Positions 4,940 through 43,655 of a stretch of 64,000 bases of DNA are shown one piece after another. The notes under the pieces are model-generated. The model did no database searches, was not told the origin of the DNA, and worked only from the letters and a program-made list of their open reading frames with translations. Positions within the stretch are counted from its first letter, which is position 1. Each line of letters begins with the position of its first letter. A program made the position numbers and the translations under genes. Source of the DNA: a virus; UHGV virus genome UHGV-1343746; one strand, 5' to 3'.

Positions 4940-7639
4940 ATGGACAATGTAGATTTCGAAAAATTACATTTGGTTGGTGATACAGAAACTGATGGGTTGC
5001 TCCTTGAGTTTACAAAAGCACACGTAATGGCTTTCGCAGACTATAAAGATGACAGTGACGAACCTGCTGTGTGGGTGTTCACTGATGAGCCTATCCTTGG
5101 TCACAAGTACACGAAGTACATCAAAGGTGGTCTGCGTGAAGGTGTTGAGTTTGCACTGAAAGCTAAACGCCTTTGCATCCACAATGGTTTGGGTTATGAC
5201 TGGTGGGTGTTTAATCACATTGCACCTGACCTGTGGAACTTTGAGAATCCTAAGTGTAAGCCTTGGAGTGACTTCTTTCAGGATTCACTTATCCAATCTC
5301 GCGTACAGTGGATGGATAGACCTACGCCAAAAGGTTACAAAGGTGCTCATGGTTTGGCTGCATGGGGTGCTCGTGTAGGTGTCCGTAAACCAGAGATTGA
5401 AGAGTGGGGTGTCTGGAATGCAGAGATTCTTACTCGTGTTGTAGAAGATATTAAGATTAACGCCAAAACTAAACGTGCTCTTGATAATGAGTACCTCAAG
5501 CTTAAGAAGTGTGGTGTTGACACTTATGAAACCTACATGCGAGCTAAAGAAACATCCTTCTGGATGAGTCAGCAAGCTATCAACGGTTGGAAAGCTGATG
5601 TAGAACTTATGCAGTTCCACGTTAAAGAACTTGACAAGTTAACTAATGAGTTGGCTGCTGAGGTTGAACCACACCTTCCACCAACTATTAAGACAAAAGG
5701 TAAAGTTACAGGTGAAGAATTTGCCAAGTCTTGGAACGAGTATGTAGATACATTTGGTCACGTTGACGGTTTAAAAAGGATTACCAAGTACCCTAAGACA
5801 AAGTATCGTGAACAGATGCGTGAAGGTGAGTTGAAGCAGTACCCTATTAAGCCATATGGTAAGCCAACTACAAAGATTTTTAATGTTGAGAAACGCAACT
5901 GCTACACTCCAACTAACACGGTCACAAAAGAAGAGTACCCTGAAGGTTTTGTAGCAATGAAAGATGCTCGTGCAGTTTGTAATGAACTGAATGAGAAGAT
6001 TGGCAAGAAGTGTAAAGATTGGAAGCCAGTTAAGACTGTGAAAACTGTGAAGTACTACAACGTTCACGTTGTTAATCACTTTGAGTTAGAGTCTAGTCGC
6101 TACACTGGTTTGATTGATGCACCATTCACACCAATTGAGTTTGAAGTTTCACGAATGACTCAGGTAGCTGTGGTGAAGGATTACTTAAAATCCGTTGGTT
6201 GGATTCCTGATGATTGGAACTATAAAAAAGATTCTGATGGTCGTCCTATCAAGGTTTGCAGATTCAAAGACAACAAAAAGATGATTCGCAAACATCCTAA
6301 GTGGGATGAGATGGTTGAGCGTTGTGGGTTGAACTATATTGAGCATGAAGGTGTCTATTACATCGAGCATAACTGGTCTGTTAAGAAGTACACAGATGTG
6401 CTTGAACCTTGCTTGATTAGGACTTCACCAAAGCTTACAGAGTCTTCTTATGATACAATCGAAGGTGAGCTTGGACAGAAGATTGCGAAGTACTATACTT
6501 TGATGCACCGACGCAGGACTATTGAGAACTCAAAGGATGATGAGAAAGGTTGGCTGAACCAGATTCGTCCAGATGGTCGTTTGAGTGCAGGTGCAATGGT
6601 GTTTGGTACTTCTACTGGACGTATGACTCAGTATGGTATTGTAAACGTACCTTCTGGTGCTGCTGTTTACGGTGAGCCAATGAGGGCAGTGTGGATTTGT
6701 GAAGAGGGAACCAACGTAGTATCTGTTGATATGAACTCTGCACAGCTTGTACTACTCTGTAACTTCATGGGTGATAAAGACTTCACCAAAGCGGTAACAG
6801 AGGGTAAAGAAGAGATTGAGTTTGTTCGTCAAGAGGATGGAAGATACTACTGCAAACACTTTGACCAGTATCTGAATCCAGAGATTGACAAGTATCTGCG
6901 TTATGACTCTGAAAACGATTTGTACGTAGTTTACTCAGGGACTGATGCTCACACTCTGAACAGTATCTACTTCAGCCTTAATGATGAGCAAGATATCTTG
7001 ACTTGTCGTGCTACTCAGGATGAGAATCTTCTTCATGAGATTAGCAAGGGACGTAAGAAAGCTAAGAATGGTATATATGCTTTGTTGTTCGGTGCAGGTG
7101 ATGAGAAGTTTGCCAAGACAATTAAAGCAGCAACTACTCAGGAAGGTGCATTGACTAAGCAGACTTACTTTGTGCGTTTGCCGAAGATTAAGAAACTGTT
7201 AGACAACTTGGAAGCTGATTTCAAAGCAACTAAGAAAGCACTTGAAGAGGTGTTTGGTAAGACTGCTGCAATCTCTAAAGGTGGTTTTGTGAAGGTTGCT
7301 GGGGCTTGGCTGTGGTGTAAGTCCCCACACAAACTCTTGAACTATTTGCTGATGGGTTCAGAAGCACAAGTTCAGAATGAAGCAATCAACCTTGCATGTC
7401 GTCGTATGATTGACGAAGGTTTGATGAAGTTGAATGGTCGTAAACCAGCTATTGGTGCTCGCTTACTCTGTGCTTACCACGATGAAACAAGCTGGGAATG
7501 TCCAGAGAGCATGACAGCAGATGTGAAAGCAGTAACTGACTGGTATTATGGTCAAGCATCTAAGAACCTTGGGCTAAGAAAAGAGACATTGGTCACAGGT
7601 GCAGGGAAAGTTGGTAAATCGTGGCTTGAAGTCCACTAA
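4940..7639 (+). CDS. DNA polymerase family A with 3'-5' exonuclease domain
   Basis: 899 aa; Exo I motif VGDTETDG near N-terminus; motif B-like RKKAKNGIYALLFG; motif C YHDE; SD GGGAG upstream. Confidence 0.85.
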   Translation: MDNVDFEKLHLVGDTETDGLLLEFTKAHVMAFADYKDDSDEPAVWVFTDEPILGHKYTKYIKGGLREGVEFALKAKRLCIHNGLGYDWWVFNHIAPDLWNFENPKCKPWSDFFQDSLIQSRVQWMDRPTPKGYKGAHGLAAWGARVGVRKPEIEEWGVWNAEILTRVVEDIKINAKTKRALDNEYLKLKKCGVDTYETYMRAKETSFWMSQQAINGWKADVELMQFHVKELDKLTNELAAEVEPHLPPTIKTKGKVTGEEFAKSWNEYVDTFGHVDGLKRITKYPKTKYREQMREGELKQYPIKPYGKPTTKIFNVEKRNCYTPTNTVTKEEYPEGFVAMKDARAVCNELNEKIGKKCKDWKPVKTVKTVKYYNVHVVNHFELESSRYTGLIDAPFTPIEFEVSRMTQVAVVKDYLKSVGWIPDDWNYKKDSDGRPIKVCRFKDNKKMIRKHPKWDEMVERCGLNYIEHEGVYYIEHNWSVKKYTDVLEPCLIRTSPKLTESSYDTIEGELGQKIAKYYTLMHRRRTIENSKDDEKGWLNQIRPDGRLSAGAMVFGTSTGRMTQYGIVNVPSGAAVYGEPMRAVWICEEGTNVVSVDMNSAQLVLLCNFMGDKDFTKAVTEGKEEIEFVRQEDGRYYCKHFDQYLNPEIDKYLRYDSENDLYVVYSGTDAHTLNSIYFSLNDEQDILTCRATQDENLLHEISKGRKKAKNGIYALLFGAGDEKFAKTIKAATTQEGALTKQTYFVRLPKIKKLLDNLEADFKATKKALEEVFGKTAAISKGGFVKVAGAWLWCKSPHKLLNYLLMGSEAQVQNEAINLACRRMIDEGLMKLNGRKPAIGARLLCAYHDETSWECPESMTADVKAVTDWYYGQASKNLGLRKETLVTGAGKVGKSWLEVH

Positions 7640-40185: not shown

Positions 40186-40261
40186 TGGAGTATCGGAAGG
40201 GACTCGAACCCTCATAAACCTGTTTTGCAGACAGGCACATAACCATTTCTGACACCGACAC
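40186..40261 (-). tRNA. tRNA-Cys(GCA)
   Basis: manual fold: sense T-loop TTCGAGT, anticodon loop CTGCAAA, 7-bp acceptor stem, CCA encoded. Confidence 0.7.
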
Positions 40262-40267
40262 ATAATT

Positions 40268-40360
40268 TGGAGGAAGATACCAGACTTGAACTGGTACGCC
40301 GATTTCTCGGTTACTGGCAGTTTAGCAAACTGCTCCCTTACCTTTTAGGGTTAATCTTCC
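40268..40360 (-). tRNA. tRNA-Ser(GCU), long variable arm
   Basis: T-loop TTCAAGT; anticodon loop TTGCTAA; ~93 nt with variable-arm hairpin. Confidence 0.7.
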
Positions 40361-40361
40361 A

Positions 40362-41096
40362 TTATTTGTTCAGAGCTTCTTTCATCTCTGGAGTTGCGAT
40401 AGTATCAATCACACCAGTTTTACATGAATCATCAAACCAGCTTGGTAGAACATTCGCAAGGAAACCATTAATATTTGTTTTCAGGTATTCTGCAATCAGT
40501 GCTGCTTCATCTGCAATCATCTGAGTTACTTCATTAGCATATGCAGTAATCTTTGCAATACCCTCATTAATCGCTGTAACGGCCTGTGTAGCGAGTTCAG
40601 AGATTGTATCTAGTCCTTGGTCGATTGCATCTTGCAAATCGCTTAGAACGCTATTTACAGCGTCTATGGAGGTATTAATCAAATCCATCGCTTTATTACC
40701 GTACTCGGTAGCTACGCCCATGATACCGCTAAACGGTGTACATCCAACCTGTTCACCTGCTGCTCCCATAACGTTAGAGTAACCTTTAGCTACTTGCATA
40801 CGTTGTGAAAACTCATCTACAGACTTTTGTCCATACTCAGTGAGTGTACTTGTCGTTGAAGTTGTACTTCCAAGGCTTGTTGTGAAGCTTCCTAATAAGG
40901 CTGTTGTCAGTCCAGCAGCAACTAAAATCTGTTGTGTGGCTGGGTCTGTTACAGAACTAATTGAGTTAACTAATGATTGAGAGGCAGCTATAGTACCACC
41001 AAGAACTGCTGCACCAGTAATAAGAGGGTTTGAAAAACCATTACCAGTTTTAAGGAGATTAAAAATCTCTTTACTTTGTTCTGTCATCTCTTTCAT
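40362..41096 (-). CDS. Ala/Ser/Thr-rich protein with hydrophobic segments, embedded in tRNA cluster
   Basis: track ORF trimmed to ATG at 41096 because the listed N-terminus overlaps tRNA-Phe. Confidence 0.45.
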   Translation of the reverse strand: MKEMTEQSKEIFNLLKTGNGFSNPLITGAAVLGGTIAASQSLVNSISSVTDPATQQILVAAGLTTALLGSFTTSLGSTTSTTSTLTEYGQKSVDEFSQRMQVAKGYSNVMGAAGEQVGCTPFSGIMGVATEYGNKAMDLINTSIDAVNSVLSDLQDAIDQGLDTISELATQAVTAINEGIAKITAYANEVTQMIADEAALIAEYLKTNINGFLANVLPSWFDDSCKTGVIDTIATPEMKEALNK

Positions 41097-41114
41097 TATG
41101 CACCTATAAAGTTG

Positions 41115-41189
41115 GTAGCCCATCGGGATTTGAACCCTGTTCTCATGTTTTTCAGACACGCGCTTTAACCATATAAGCTAATTGAGCTA
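41115..41189 (-). tRNA. tRNA-Phe(GAA)
   Basis: T-loop TTCAAAT; anticodon loop CTGAAAA; acceptor TAGCTCA/TGGGCTA. Confidence 0.65.
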
Positions 41190-41195
41190 TTAAAT

Positions 41196-41272
41196 TGGGG
41201 TGACCTACGGGAATCGAACCCGTATAGACCATGTTCACAGCATGGGTCATTATCCATTTATGATAAGGCCAC
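41196..41272 (-). tRNA. tRNA-His(GUG)
   Basis: T-loop TTCGATT; anticodon loop CTGTGAA; CCA encoded. Confidence 0.7.
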
Positions 41273-41303
41273 ATTTAAGGACTCTCGTAAGAACCCTTAG
41301 AAG

Positions 41304-41379
41304 TGGCAGCAGTATAAGGATTTGAACCTTAATCTTTCAGCTTCAGAGGCTGGAGCATTGCCAGTTATGCTATACTGCT
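41304..41379 (-). tRNA. tRNA-Gln(CUG)
   Basis: T-loop TTCAAAT; anticodon loop CTCTGAA. Confidence 0.65.
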
Positions 41380-41385
41380 AATATT

Positions 41386-41456
41386 TGGTACTCCATATCG
41401 GATTCGAACCGATACATAACACAGATTTTAAATCTGGCCTCTCTGCCAATTGGAGT
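41386..41456 (-). tRNA. atypical tRNA-like gene, candidate anticodon UAA
   Basis: good T-arm and 6/7 acceptor stem, but only ~68 nt without CCA; anticodon region is palindrome CAGATTTTAAATCTG; truncated D-arm. Confidence 0.4.
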
Positions 41457-41466
41457 AATGGAGCAT

Positions 41467-41541
41467 TGGCGGGGGATGATGGAATTGAACCATCTTCTTC
41501 GATTTCAAAGACCGAGGTTTTAACCTTGTAAACTAATCCCC
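41467..41541 (-). tRNA. tRNA-Gln(UUG)
   Basis: T-loop TTCAATT; anticodon loop CTTTGAA; positions 1-72 mismatched. Confidence 0.6.
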
Positions 41542-41550
41542 TATTAAATT

Positions 41551-41627
41551 TGGTGCAGAATAGAGGATTCGAACCCCTAACAAACAACTTCGTAGATTGC
41601 TGTTCTATCCATTTGAACTAATTCTGC
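41551..41627 (-). tRNA. tRNA-Arg(ACG)
   Basis: T-loop TTCGAAT; anticodon loop CTACGAA; perfect acceptor stem. Confidence 0.7.
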
Positions 41628-41628
41628 A

Positions 41629-41871
41629 TTATCCGATAAGGACACCATAAAGTTTTAACTCTTCATTAGTGTCTCTTCTGCTTAAGACTGACTCTCTAAA
41701 ATCTTTAGCAATATTCTTTCGAGATTCCTGTCTAGCTTTCTTCTTATCTCTTCTGAGAAAGCGTCTACGATGGTCTGTACGCCACTTGTAGTAATCTTCT
41801 TCACCATCGTGAGAAGCGCAGCAGCCACAACTTGCAATTTCAACTTTACCATGTCTACCATAAGGCTTCAT
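41629..41871 (-). CDS. small basic Cys-containing protein embedded in tRNA cluster
   Basis: 80 aa, Arg/Lys-rich with CGCC...H cluster. Confidence 0.4.
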   Translation of the reverse strand: MKPYGRHGKVEIASCGCCASHDGEEDYYKWRTDHRRRFLRRDKKKARQESRKNIAKDFRESVLSRRDTNEELKLYGVLIG

Positions 41872-41887
41872 AGGAATCTCCTAAAAT

Positions 41888-41965
41888 TGGTGTTCCAAGA
41901 CGGATTCGAACCGTCACTAATACAAGGTTTGAGCTTGCATCCTCTACCAATTGGGATACTGGAAC
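41888..41965 (-). tRNA. tRNA with anticodon CAA (Leu-type) but short variable arm
   Basis: T-loop TTCGAAT; anticodon loop CTCAAAC; ~75 nt without CCA. Confidence 0.55.
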
Positions 41966-41966
41966 T

Positions 41967-42040
41967 TGGTACTCGCTGAAGGACTTGAACCTTCTTCACC
42001 AACTTGTAAGGATGGGGCTTTACCATATAAACTAAGCGAG
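41967..42040 (-). tRNA. tRNA-Val(UAC)
   Basis: T-loop TTCAAGT; anticodon loop CTTACAA. Confidence 0.6.
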
Positions 42041-42136
42041 CTTTGAAGAGGTCTGAAGCTGTGCCGCTAACTCAACTCCGTGGAATTTGTTACGGTCTTC
42101 AGTTGACTCAAGCGGTCTTTCACTTGACCTCAAAAT

Positions 42137-42212
42137 TGGTGCTCCCACAAGGATTCGAACCCTGATAAGTTGCTTACAAGGCAACCGTAATAGCCAATTA
42201 TACGATAAGAGC
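42137..42212 (-). tRNA. tRNA-Thr(UGU)
   Basis: T-loop TTCGAAT; anticodon stem GTTGC/GCAAC with loop CTTGTAA. Confidence 0.7.
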
Positions 42213-42218
42213 ATTGTT

Positions 42219-42293
42219 TGGAGCATCCAGAGGGAATCGAACCCTCAACCTCAGTTTGGAAGACTGTAATTTTCCCATTTAAACTATGGATGC
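42219..42293 (-). tRNA. tRNA-Gly(UCC)
   Basis: T-loop TTCGATT; anticodon loop CTTCCAA; perfect acceptor stem. Confidence 0.7.
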
Positions 42294-42299
42294 ACTAAT

Positions 42300-42375
42300 T
42301 GGTGGAGAAGCAGGGAATTGAACCCTGTACTTAAGTTTGCAAAACTTATGTTTTAACCATGTAAACTACATCCCC
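42300..42375 (-). tRNA. tRNA-Ala(UGC)
   Basis: T-loop TTCAATT; anticodon loop TTTGCAA; G3-U70 wobble pair present. Confidence 0.7.
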
Positions 42376-42381
42376 ATTGTT

Positions 42382-42457
42382 TGGTACAGGTGGAGTGAAT
42401 TGAACCCATCGTCTTACTGATTAAGAGTCAGCCGCATAACCATTTTGCTACACCTGC
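42382..42457 (-). tRNA. tRNA-Lys(CUU)
   Basis: anticodon loop CTCTTAA; acceptor stem good; T-stem weakly paired. Confidence 0.55.
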
Positions 42458-42464
42458 ATTAATT

Positions 42465-42542
42465 TGGTAGGAGACAAGGGATTCGAACCCTCAAACACCA
42501 ACTTCTAAGGATGGTAGGTTTACCAATTACCGTCAATCTCCC
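42465..42542 (-). tRNA. tRNA with anticodon UAG (Leu-type) but short variable arm
   Basis: T-loop TTCGAAT; anticodon loop CTTAGAA; ~75 nt without CCA. Confidence 0.55.
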
Positions 42543-42797
42543 ATTAAATCTTTGTAGAGAACTGCTAAGACGCCAAAGCAACAATGGTATCAAATGCCTT
42601 AACAATTCTCTAAAAAGACCTATTGGCCTTTGCGTAGTCTTCTTTAATCCGGTGACTAGAACCTTTGGAGAGCTTGATATTATCTCTTCTCCGTGACACC
42701 TACTAGGTGCTTTGTCAGTGCCGTGTACGCCAATACACGAAGAGGAAACCTGAAACACTTGCCCGAACAGCGAGTCTCAGCTTTAAATCTTATTAGG

Positions 42798-42881
42798 CGG
42801 TAGATAAAGGAGTCGAACCCTCACCGTATCTCTACAATGGCAACTGTTTTCAAGACAGTTTGGCTTCCATTAGCCGCTACC
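42798..42881 (-). tRNA. tRNA-Ser(UGA), long variable arm
   Basis: T-loop TTCGACT; anticodon stem ACTGT/ACAGT with loop CTTGAAA; ~84 nt, no CCA encoded. Confidence 0.6.
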
Positions 42882-42898
42882 TACCCCTAATAAGACTT

Positions 42899-42981
42899 TG
42901 GCATGGGACGGAGGATTCGAACCCCTTTGAGTAAGTTTTGGAGGCTTACGCACATGCCTTAGTGTCTTAACATCGTCCCAT
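42899..42981 (-). tRNA. tRNA, long (about 83 nt), anticodon unresolved (CCA/Trp candidate)
   Basis: T-loop TTCGAAT; perfect acceptor match GTCCCAT; internal fold ambiguous. Confidence 0.5.
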
Positions 42982-43146
42982 ACTATAATTCGAAGCTTAC
43001 CCTGTTATCTCAACACTGTCAAGCTTCTTCTCAGATTATTTACATGTTCTGGAAAACATGAGATACAGACCACCTCCTTATGAGATTGACTTTTTCAAGT
43101 CAATGCGGAGACCCATAAAGGTCGTCATAGTAATCTGCTAACTAAC

Positions 43147-43223
43147 TGGCACACCCTACAGGATTCGAACCTGTAACTGACGGTTTAGAAGACCGTTGCT
43201 CTATCCGTTTGAACTAAGGGTGC
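43147..43223 (-). tRNA. tRNA-Arg(UCU)
   Basis: T-loop TTCGAAT; anticodon stem ACGGT/ACCGT with loop CTTCTAA. Confidence 0.7.
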
Positions 43224-43500
43224 ATTAACATTTTAAAGAGCACTCATTGCATTTAAGCCAAGCCCCATAAGGGATGCTCTTTAGAATGTTGCCCACTTTA
43301 TTAATCATACCGTGGGCTAGTACGCCAAATTCTTTAACAGGGAGTTGGAATACCCTGCTGGTGTTTAGCCTATTAAGCTACTGCCAGAAAAACATTATCG
43401 TTTGCATTTATTTTTAAGTTTTTAAAATAGACGCTACGCTAACGAAAACTAAGGTTATCTTAAAGTGGTCACATCTGAATGTCAACAACTTTATGAAATT

Positions 43501-43576
43501 TGGTACTGGTAGGTGGAATCGAACCACCGATATTCCCTTATCAGGGGAGTGTTATAACCTTCTTAACTATACCAGC
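43501..43576 (-). tRNA. tRNA-Ile(GAU)
   Basis: T-loop TTCGATT; anticodon loop CTGATAA. Confidence 0.65.
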
Positions 43577-43578
43577 AT

Positions 43579-43655
43579 TGGAGGTTCAGGTGGGAATCGA
43601 ACCCACATTCATAGGGCTTATGAAACCCTTGCATTACCTTATCTGCGACTGAACC
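43579..43655 (-). tRNA. tRNA-Met(CAU)
   Basis: T-loop TTCGATT; anticodon loop TTCATAA with GGG/CCC stem; perfect acceptor stem. Confidence 0.65.

Follow-up and report, generated by a model that had tools for sequence, protein, structure and literature searches.

The tRNA-Leu genes of E. coli K-12 (leuZ, leuX, leuW, leuV and leuU) are 85-87 nt long, with a variable region of 13-15 nt folded into a stem-loop, the class II design. The tRNA-Leu(UAG) of phage T5, which lies in a coliphage tRNA cluster, follows it with 85 nt, a long arm and a 13-nt variable region. The tRNA-Leu of phage T4, again from a coliphage tRNA cluster, is also class II.

The long arm is nevertheless not among the elements by which the E. 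coli leucyl-tRNA synthetase (LeuRS) recognises its substrate. The identity set consists of A73, A15:U48, G18G19, A20a and the tertiary contacts that link the D loop with the T loop, and uses neither the anticodon nor the long variable arm (PMC9976931). Truncated tRNA-Leu without anticodon and variable arms is still active (PMC9976931), and an engineered minimal E. coli tRNA-Leu of this kind is charged and edited by the E. coli enzyme (EcLeuRS) if A73 and the D/T contacts are kept (Larkin et al. 2002, in PMC9976931). [quoted passage not shown]

Short-armed tRNA-Leu has been described in a few natural settings. The type I tRNA-Leu(CAA) of Streptomyces coelicolor has a 5-nt variable loop and was leucylated by a bacterial LeuRS in experiment; U8:A14 is important in this tRNA, and its variable loop needs at least 5 nt (PMC6614811). 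The tRNA-Leu of animal mitochondria, for instance human mt-tRNA-Leu(UUR), is also armless and is identified mainly by A73 and A14 (PMC9976931); it has a floppy, reduced structure and is served by a dedicated mitochondrial LeuRS. A mycobacterial tRNA cluster contains a tRNA-Leu(TAG) with a short variable loop, mentioned in passing for this actinobacterial host in a paper that offers no analysis of identity or distribution (PMC6582537); apart from this remark, our literature search found no description of short-arm tRNA-Leu in phages as such. Here we analyse tRNA-Leu genes of this type in a 64,000-nt stretch of a viral genome (UHGV-1343746), hereafter the window.

Three short tRNA-Leu genes in a Felix-O1-like phage

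The window carries a cluster of 26 phage tRNA genes at 40186..45351 on the minus strand, recognised by ARAGORN and matched by Rfam family RF00005; nearly all have an encoded CCA, and small ORFs lie in between. The cluster region is 92-97% identical to Mooglevirus and Felixounavirus phages of Shigella, Citrobacter, Escherichia and Salmonella, and, judged by its sequence, the window is a Felix-O1-like phage of the Mooglevirus/Felixounavirus type (Ounavirinae). Shigella phage KPS64 has this cluster annotated as well, and its record lists, from tRNAscan-SE, the three genes discussed below as tRNA-Leu TAA, CAA and TAG. In the record of Erwinia phage phiEa104, one short Leu-anticodon tRNA is labelled "undetermined". 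The three genes of the window are type I tRNA-Leu, a known kind, and public records already call them tRNA-Leu, their armless design having gone largely unremarked.

The preliminary description of this locus had pointed to two short genes with leucine anticodons, at 41888..41965 and 42465..42542, and ARAGORN returned precisely these coordinates, anticodons and anticodon loops. The first, on the minus strand, is a type I tRNA-Leu(CAA) of 78 nt including the encoded CCA, also matched by Rfam. Its anticodon lies at 41929..41931 in the loop CUCAAAC, on a stem of five pairs of which one is G.U. It has U8 and A9, the D arm UCCCAAUUGGUAGAGGA with C13.A22, A73 and an encoded CCA. The variable region, AUUAGU, occupies 41916..41921 (minus strand; from segmentation and the Rfam alignment) and its 6 nt end in U48.

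The second gene, at 42465..42542 on the minus strand (ARAGORN, Rfam), is a tRNA-Leu(UAG) of the same length, 78 nt with encoded CCA, and its anticodon is at 42505..42507 in the loop CUUAGAA. Its variable region, UGUUU, was placed by segmentation at 42493..42497 (minus strand), is 5 nt long and also ends in U48, so that the 5-6 nt originally read for the two genes is correct. The 5-bp anticodon stem read for both stands only for the CAA gene, since a U30.U40 mismatch leaves the UAG gene with four pairs of five. This gene has U8 and G9, G1.U72, A73 and an encoded CCA, and the most plausible reading of its D stem is A10-U25, a bulged C, G-C, G-C and U-A. It carries A37, in place of the G37 of host leucine tRNAs that read CUN codons. 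It is the least regular and the weakest of the genes.

A third short gene, a tRNA-Leu(UAA) of 79 nt at 41386..41464 on the minus strand (ARAGORN, Rfam), was missing from the original list. Its anticodon at 41428..41430 sits in the loop UUUAAAA, identical to that of E. coli leuZ, and it has U8 and A9, C13.A22, G1.U72, A73, an encoded CCA and a variable region of 7 nt at 41414..41420.

The serine and tyrosine genes of the same cluster serve as internal comparators and, as had been noticed, retain a long variable arm. ARAGORN places tRNA-Ser(GCU) at 40268..40360 (93 nt), tRNA-Ser(UGA) at 42796..42885 (90 nt) and tRNA-Tyr(GUA) at 44770..44854 (85 nt), all on the minus strand. Bacterial TyrRS binds the long arm. 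None of the leucine genes has the variable region of more than 10 nt, forming a stem-loop, that marks class II (6 nt in CAA, 5 in UAG, 7 in UAA). The class II core, U8-G9 with a purine13.A22 pair, is likewise absent from the UAA and CAA genes, which have A9 and C13.A22; G9 occurs only in the UAG gene.

The preliminary description had left room for the folds being wrong. This option can be set aside, as ARAGORN, Rfam and the covariation of 109 relatives (see below) all support both the folds and the anticodons. Against RF00005 the CAA, UAG and UAA genes score 46.5, 40.0 and 46.9 bits (gathering score 29), with E-values of 1e-9 for CAA and 8e-8 for UAG on small regions, and each aligns over its full length to the cloverleaf with the anticodon given by ARAGORN. 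No alternative fold or anticodon with a higher score was found for any of the three. Minimum free energy folds of the single sequences were not cloverleaves (z-scores -2.1, -2.0 and -0.3), and were judged uninformative for tRNAs and set aside. We also dropped the Rfam alignment of the UAG gene in one respect: it moves the 5' end by one base and gives a U discriminator, which removes one base from the acceptor stem and shifts the CCA from its register.

The likeness to the host genes lies in the elements outside the arm. With E. coli leuZ (UAA), leuX (CAA) and leuW (UAG), the phage genes share the anticodons and the D loop A14 A15 U16 U17 G18 G19 N20 A20a, and with E. coli tRNA-Leu in general the non-Watson-Crick 13:22, U48, A73 and the frequent G1.U72. 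They differ by lacking the variable stem-loop and, in the UAA and CAA genes, by A9 and C13.A22 where E. coli has G9 and purine13.A22; at position 37, leuW has G and the phage UAG gene A. Compared with its hosts, then, whose tRNA-Leu genes are all of the long-armed type, the phage does possess unusual leucine tRNAs, as had been proposed.

A conserved and covarying family

Since BLAST is too insensitive for tRNAs, motif scans combined with ARAGORN were used in its place to find relatives. By BLAST, the CAA gene matches only Ounavirinae among cultured phages; it is present in 291 phage records (about 290 Ounavirinae genomes), at 95-99% identity in 248 of them. A more distant genus, Kolesnikvirus (Erwinia phage phiEa104 and phage phi63_307), also has three short leucine genes; two have the anticodons CAA and UAA, and the third has AAG, which reads CUU, in place of UAG.

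We scanned IMG/VR for the D-arm motif of the window's leucine genes and searched the resulting 120 loci for tRNAs with ARAGORN. This yielded 204 Leu-anticodon tRNAs of at most 80 nt (131 different sequences) on contigs between 6 kb and 476 kb long; the motif was located 98 times in short leucine tRNAs and never in long ones. From these relatives we aligned 109 unique short leucine tRNAs of unrelated viral contigs, each less than 80% identical to the window genes. Under a cloverleaf with a short variable loop, 93.6% of the cells of this alignment are paired, and there are 787 double-sided changes, at least one for each of the 21 pairs. The covariation score is 0.955, compared with 0.217 after shuffling and at most 0.18 when the partners are slid. 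Positions 13 and 22 are unpaired in 107 of the 109 sequences; U8, A14, A35 and U48 never vary, and A15, G18, G19, A20a and A73 are conserved at 90% or more.

A covariance model of type I tRNA-Leu (R1) was built from the same alignment, and thus without the phage group of the window. It gives the CAA, UAA and UAG genes 75.5, 74.6 and 53.7 bits, which is 29.0, 27.7 and 13.7 bits above the general tRNA model. For the other cluster tRNAs scored by both models, the difference ranges from +1.8 (His) to -26.7. The best R1 score in the cluster after CAA and UAA is 56.7 bits, and the 53.7 bits of the UAG gene, although 13.7 above the general model, fall inside the range of non-Leu (Arg, Glu) tRNAs. Aligned to R1, this gene has all 7 bp of its acceptor stem, A73, and in the D stem just one bulged base, which among relatives is C or U without compensation.

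Two short designs can be told apart in viruses. Long viral leucine tRNAs have U8-G9 in 72 of 74 cases, with G.A or A.A at 13.22. Among 159 short ones, 127 have U8-A9 and 118 have C13.A22, and the variable loop is 5 nt long in 91 of 119; a minority subfamily (27 of 159) has U8-G9, as in the long type, and G13.A22. The UAA and CAA genes of the window belong to the majority type (A9, C13.A22), and the UAG gene resembles the minority type, with an extra bulged base; the variable loops of all three, of 5-7 nt, end in U48. This pattern suggests that the UAA and CAA genes on one side and the UAG gene on the other may have had two separate origins inside one cluster.

The mismatch, the bulge and the lowest scores of the UAG gene would suit the view that the three genes encode tRNA-like RNAs with little or no charging by the enterobacterial LeuRS, acting as decoys or regulators or left over from an ancestral host range, with the UAG gene perhaps decaying; the failure of EcLeuRS with one type I tRNA-Leu from nature (PMC6614811) can be cited in its favour as well. 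We regard it as very unlikely. The genes are conserved near-perfectly over hundreds of virulent phage genomes, and compensatory changes have kept their stems paired. Even in the UAG lineage of the window the anticodon stem takes the forms CCAUC/GUUGG, CCUCG/CGAGG and UCUCG/CGAGA, and therefore three of its pairs have changed on both sides. The discriminator A73, the CCA end and every LeuRS determinant are strictly kept, and the anticodons fit the codon bias of the phage. That virulent phages infecting E. coli, Shigella and Salmonella conserve the genes so strictly argues rather that the three tRNAs are probably charged.

Distribution of short-arm tRNA-Leu

Because a scan with the D-arm motif is biased towards short leucine tRNAs, a Leu-independent survey was made, in which 120 viral loci were sampled by the T arm GGTTCGATTCC followed by CCA. 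In this sample, short tRNAs account for 29 of 68 tRNA-Leu genes, but for none of 37 tRNA-Ser and none of 14 tRNA-Tyr genes (29/68 against 0/51, Fisher test, p = 6e-9). The short design is less unusual than the preliminary description had supposed. Full-length matches annotated as tRNA-Leu occur in cultured phages of Lactobacillus, Pseudomonas, Bacillus, Vibrio, Aeromonas and Salmonella.

A search of one genome per prokaryotic species with a type I-specific tRNA-Leu pattern returned at least 120 loci. Among the matches listed, most are from Actinomycetota (among them Nocardia, Mycobacterium, Gordonia, Rhodococcus, Corynebacterium, Bifidobacterium and Arthrobacter), the anticodons are mostly UAA and CAA, and the type I tRNA-Leu is the only tRNA at no fewer than 101 loci, so that it is an ordinary chromosomal gene there. 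The D-arm motif of the phage genes, CCAAUUGGYAGAGR, together with a short variable loop, is found in single chromosomal genes of many Actinomycetota among these matches. The S. coelicolor tRNA-Leu(CAA), the only such case with experimental data (PMC6614811), fits this distribution.

Charging by the host synthetase

All three window genes have A73, U8, A14, A15, U48, G18G19 and A20a, the full set of nucleotides known to be used by E. coli LeuRS, with a tertiary pairing that we infer from the sequence. The comparison of discriminator base and tertiary pairs, which had been proposed as a check, therefore came out in favour of leucine. The features retained are exactly those of the minimal tRNA-Leu, A73 and the D/T tertiary contacts, the difference being that the minimal molecule is artificial and was studied in vitro. 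Unlike in the mitochondrial tRNAs with their reduced structure, elbow and core are fully canonical in the phage tRNAs.

Other identities find little room. Pair 3:70 is U-A, U-A and G-C in the three genes, so that the G3:U70 of tRNA-Ala is missing and alanine is excluded; the lack of a long arm with G73 excludes serine, and that of G-1/C73 histidine. The remaining synthetases, including those for Lys, Ile and Arg, depend on their own anticodons (PMC9976931). Shigella phage Sf14 has a cluster about 95% identical to that of the window, with the same three leucine anticodon loops, and its published tRNAscan-SE isotype scores place leucine first for all three genes: 67.4 for TAG (Ile2 65.7, Lys 63.4), 49.1 for CAA (next Lys, 36.1) and 60.2 for TAA (next Lys, 54.2) (PMC12482277). 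The variable region is never mentioned in that report.

The charging identity of these tRNAs had been considered open. They are indeed unusual for their host, but the identity is not seriously in doubt, and leucylation is probable. LeuRS ignores both the arm and the anticodon while all its known determinants are present; the Sf14 isotype scores put leucine first and no alternative fold scores higher; and short-arm tRNA-Leu recurs naturally in phages and in Actinomycetota. Each of these points weakens the premise. An aminoacyl-tRNA synthetase, LeuRS included, was sought among the ten largest ORFs of the window, which covers all but about 25 kb of the genome, and none was found; with no synthetase among these ten, charging would fall to the host enzyme.

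The one experimental result that runs the other way is that EcLeuRS did not leucylate the S. coelicolor type I tRNA-Leu(CAA) in vitro, and the authors state that it charges type II tRNA-Leu only (PMC6614811). At position 48 the Streptomyces tRNA has C, and its A73 plays no part in identity (PMC6614811), whereas the phage genes have both A73 and the U48 that the E. coli enzyme requires; the negative result may for this reason not transfer to them. The settings differ too: the window genes belong to a virulent phage of enterobacteria, hosts in which all tRNA-Leu is type II.

Codon use and decoding

Leucine codon usage in the 55 long ORFs of the window is 26% UUA, 16.5% UUG, 27.7% CUU, 5% CUC, 9.7% CUA and 15% CUG. 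In E. coli, CUG makes up about half of the leucine codons and CUA about 4%. As phage usage differs from that of E. coli in this way, the UAA, CAA and UAG anticodons cover codons that the phage over-uses.

These codons are meant as leucine. In the large terminase gene (TerL), 20 of 27 UUA, UUG and CUA codons align with leucine in the 69%-identical phiEa104 orthologue, which writes the aligned leucines with all six leucine codons; the partners of the remaining codons are isoleucine, methionine, valine and one arginine. The alignment bears on a further reading, in which the three tRNAs would be charged with an amino acid other than leucine and UUA, UUG or CUA would be recoded during infection. 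Formally, a class I body with a leucine anticodon is not the normal substrate of E. coli LeuRS, and the second-best isotype scores in Sf14 are those of Lys, Ile2 and Arg (PMC12482277). We consider recoding extremely improbable, since leucine is the top isotype model (PMC12482277), the Lys, Ile and Arg synthetases need their own anticodons (PMC9976931), the TerL codons match leucines in the orthologue irrespective of which of the six codons is used there, and host tRNAs read the same codons as leucine throughout infection.

Discussion

The explanation that we favour, and hold with considerable confidence, is that the three genes are functional type I leucine isoacceptors, charged by the host LeuRS and decoding codons of the UUA, UUG and CUA type. 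Host LeuRS would charge the three tRNAs through A73 and the tertiary elements of the D loop and elbow. The UAA and CAA anticodons would add decoding of UUA and UUG, and the UAG anticodon that of CUA and probably of CUG and CUU, in an AT-rich phage that appears to use these leucine codons far more than its host. Our analysis establishes the genes and their folds, the identity nucleotides that are kept, the covariation across the family and the codon bias; we infer that the genes are expressed and leucylated by an enterobacterial LeuRS, and likewise the selective reason for which the arm was lost.

As to this loss, the simplest reading of a pattern confined to leucine is that the arm was lost where it is tolerated and kept where it is needed. 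On this reading, phage tRNA-Leu can lose it because LeuRS does not need it, and phage tRNA-Ser and tRNA-Tyr keep it because their synthetases do.

One might instead see the short arm as an adaptation, by which the phage tRNAs escape a host factor that recognises host tRNA-Leu, be it a defence nuclease, a toxin or a processing or regulatory factor, with charging by LeuRS unchanged and with the altered flanks of the anticodon loop also contributing. This is compatible with functional isoacceptors charged by the host and differs only in the reason for the arm loss. It would account for type I tRNA-Leu being very frequent in phages whose hosts have type II, and the CAA and UAG genes do depart from the host in their anticodon loops, at positions 32, 37 and 38, changes of a sort linked to anticodon-nuclease resistance (PMC12482277). 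No bacterial nuclease specific for class II tRNA-Leu turned up, however. Bacterial nucleases of the Schlafen type, targeting class II tRNAs as human SLFN11 does, were considered as a candidate and set aside, since the bacterial Schlafen that has been studied cuts Lys, Ala, Met, Val, Phe and Ile tRNAs, with no preference for class II (PMC13056530). Moreover, the same design is a single-copy chromosomal gene in Actinomycetota, where the evasion argument does not apply, and a neutral loss would be expected to hit, as is seen, just the one family whose synthetase pays no heed to the arm. We therefore think an adaptive origin of the short arm unlikely, if less so than a failure of charging. A bolder proposal deserves about the same small credence: phages would systematically strip tRNA-Leu down to the minimal set of LeuRS, the enterobacterial LeuRS would charge the product efficiently, and armlessness would be selected because it makes the tRNA invisible to an arm-recognising host factor. 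If that were true, the claim in print that type II tRNA-Leu is all that E. coli LeuRS charges would be overturned.

On the favoured explanation, of functional leucine isoacceptors, the consequences are plainer. If the phage tRNAs are charged by the enterobacterial LeuRS, the statement that EcLeuRS charges type II only is too strong. Short Leu-anticodon tRNAs in phage clusters are not to be dismissed as pseudogenes or as "undetermined". Textbooks and annotation habits make bacterial tRNA-Leu a class II tRNA, yet hundreds of phages infecting E. coli, Salmonella and Shigella keep a short version. Our sampling suggests that about two in five phage tRNA-Leu genes are short, and phage tRNA-Ser and tRNA-Tyr never were in the sample. 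Phages thus offer a natural experiment whose outcome matches the identity rules worked out in vitro, LeuRS ignoring the arm that SerRS and bacterial TyrRS use.

The acceptor end of the short Leu tRNAs

Among the 109 unique viral tRNA-Leu sequences with a short variable region in our alignment A1 (each less than 80% identical to the genes of the window), 44 close the acceptor stem with a G1.U72 wobble (columns 1 and 79). The UAA and UAG Leu genes of the window do so too, as do leuZ and leuU of E. coli. As PMC6614811 mentions that the CP1 domain contacts G1-U72/A73, the wobble may be relevant to LeuRS.

Possible recombination, and a short Leu tRNA with anticodon AAG, in related phages

The UAA Leu gene of Salmonella phage FM4b (5001..5079 of locus L002) appears to be chimeric: its 5' portion (GUUCCAG UA UCCC) derives from the CAA gene, the 3' portion from the UAA one, and the acceptor stem that results contains a G7.A66 mismatch. 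The Arg-ACG and Gln-UUG genes, whose place is between the CAA and UAA Leu genes, are absent here. Taken together, the chimeric gene and the missing pair suggest that recombination between the two short Leu paralogues caused a deletion. Kolesnikvirus has, where the window has UAG, a short Leu tRNA whose anticodon is AAG, with an unmodified-type A34. Erwinia phage phiEa104, of this genus, has short Leu tRNAs at 5532..5609 and 5778..5854 of locus L003; in its RefSeq record the short UAA Leu gene is entered as 'tRNA-Undet'.

Other genes in and beside the tRNA cluster

A tRNA-like sequence on the minus strand of the window (44007..44081) just misses the threshold of the Rfam general tRNA model RF00005 (28.8 bits, threshold 29) and scores 12.5 bits on R1, the covariance model built from A1. 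Its T arm is good (GAAGGTTCGATTCCTTC) and the rest is poor; a decayed tRNA gene is the probable reading. In phage KPS64 the tRNA-Asp and tRNA-Tyr genes are only 6 nt apart, whereas in the window (44237..44312 and 44770..44854) an ORF of 142 aa (44319..44747, minus strand), for which a Pfam search gave no match, intervenes. This ORF is probably a mobile insertion; HNH homing endonucleases are annotated within the tRNA cluster of relatives.

Two further protein genes lie on the minus strand. Between tRNA-Ser(GCU) and tRNA-Phe, a 253-aa DUF7217 protein (40362..41123, 282.7 bits) is encoded inside the cluster; its annotation in relatives is putative membrane protein. Immediately upstream of the cluster, a 471-aa protein (45517..46932) matches DUF2828 and DUF7788; its counterpart is recorded as vWA-containing in KPS64 and as an 'RNA-binding protein' in FM4b. 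Because its position adjoining the tRNA genes is conserved, it may have an RNA-related role.

Short-Leu D arms with other anticodons

Four tRNAs of IMG/VR contigs (L013 511..585, L017 667..741, L075 2495..2569 and L081 2678..2752) combine the short-Leu D arm (CCCCAAUUGGUAGAGGG) with a variable loop of 5 nt, yet their anticodons are those of His (GUG) or Asn (GUU), the His members carrying C as discriminator. It is possible that a tRNA body has here been taken over for another identity inside phage clusters.
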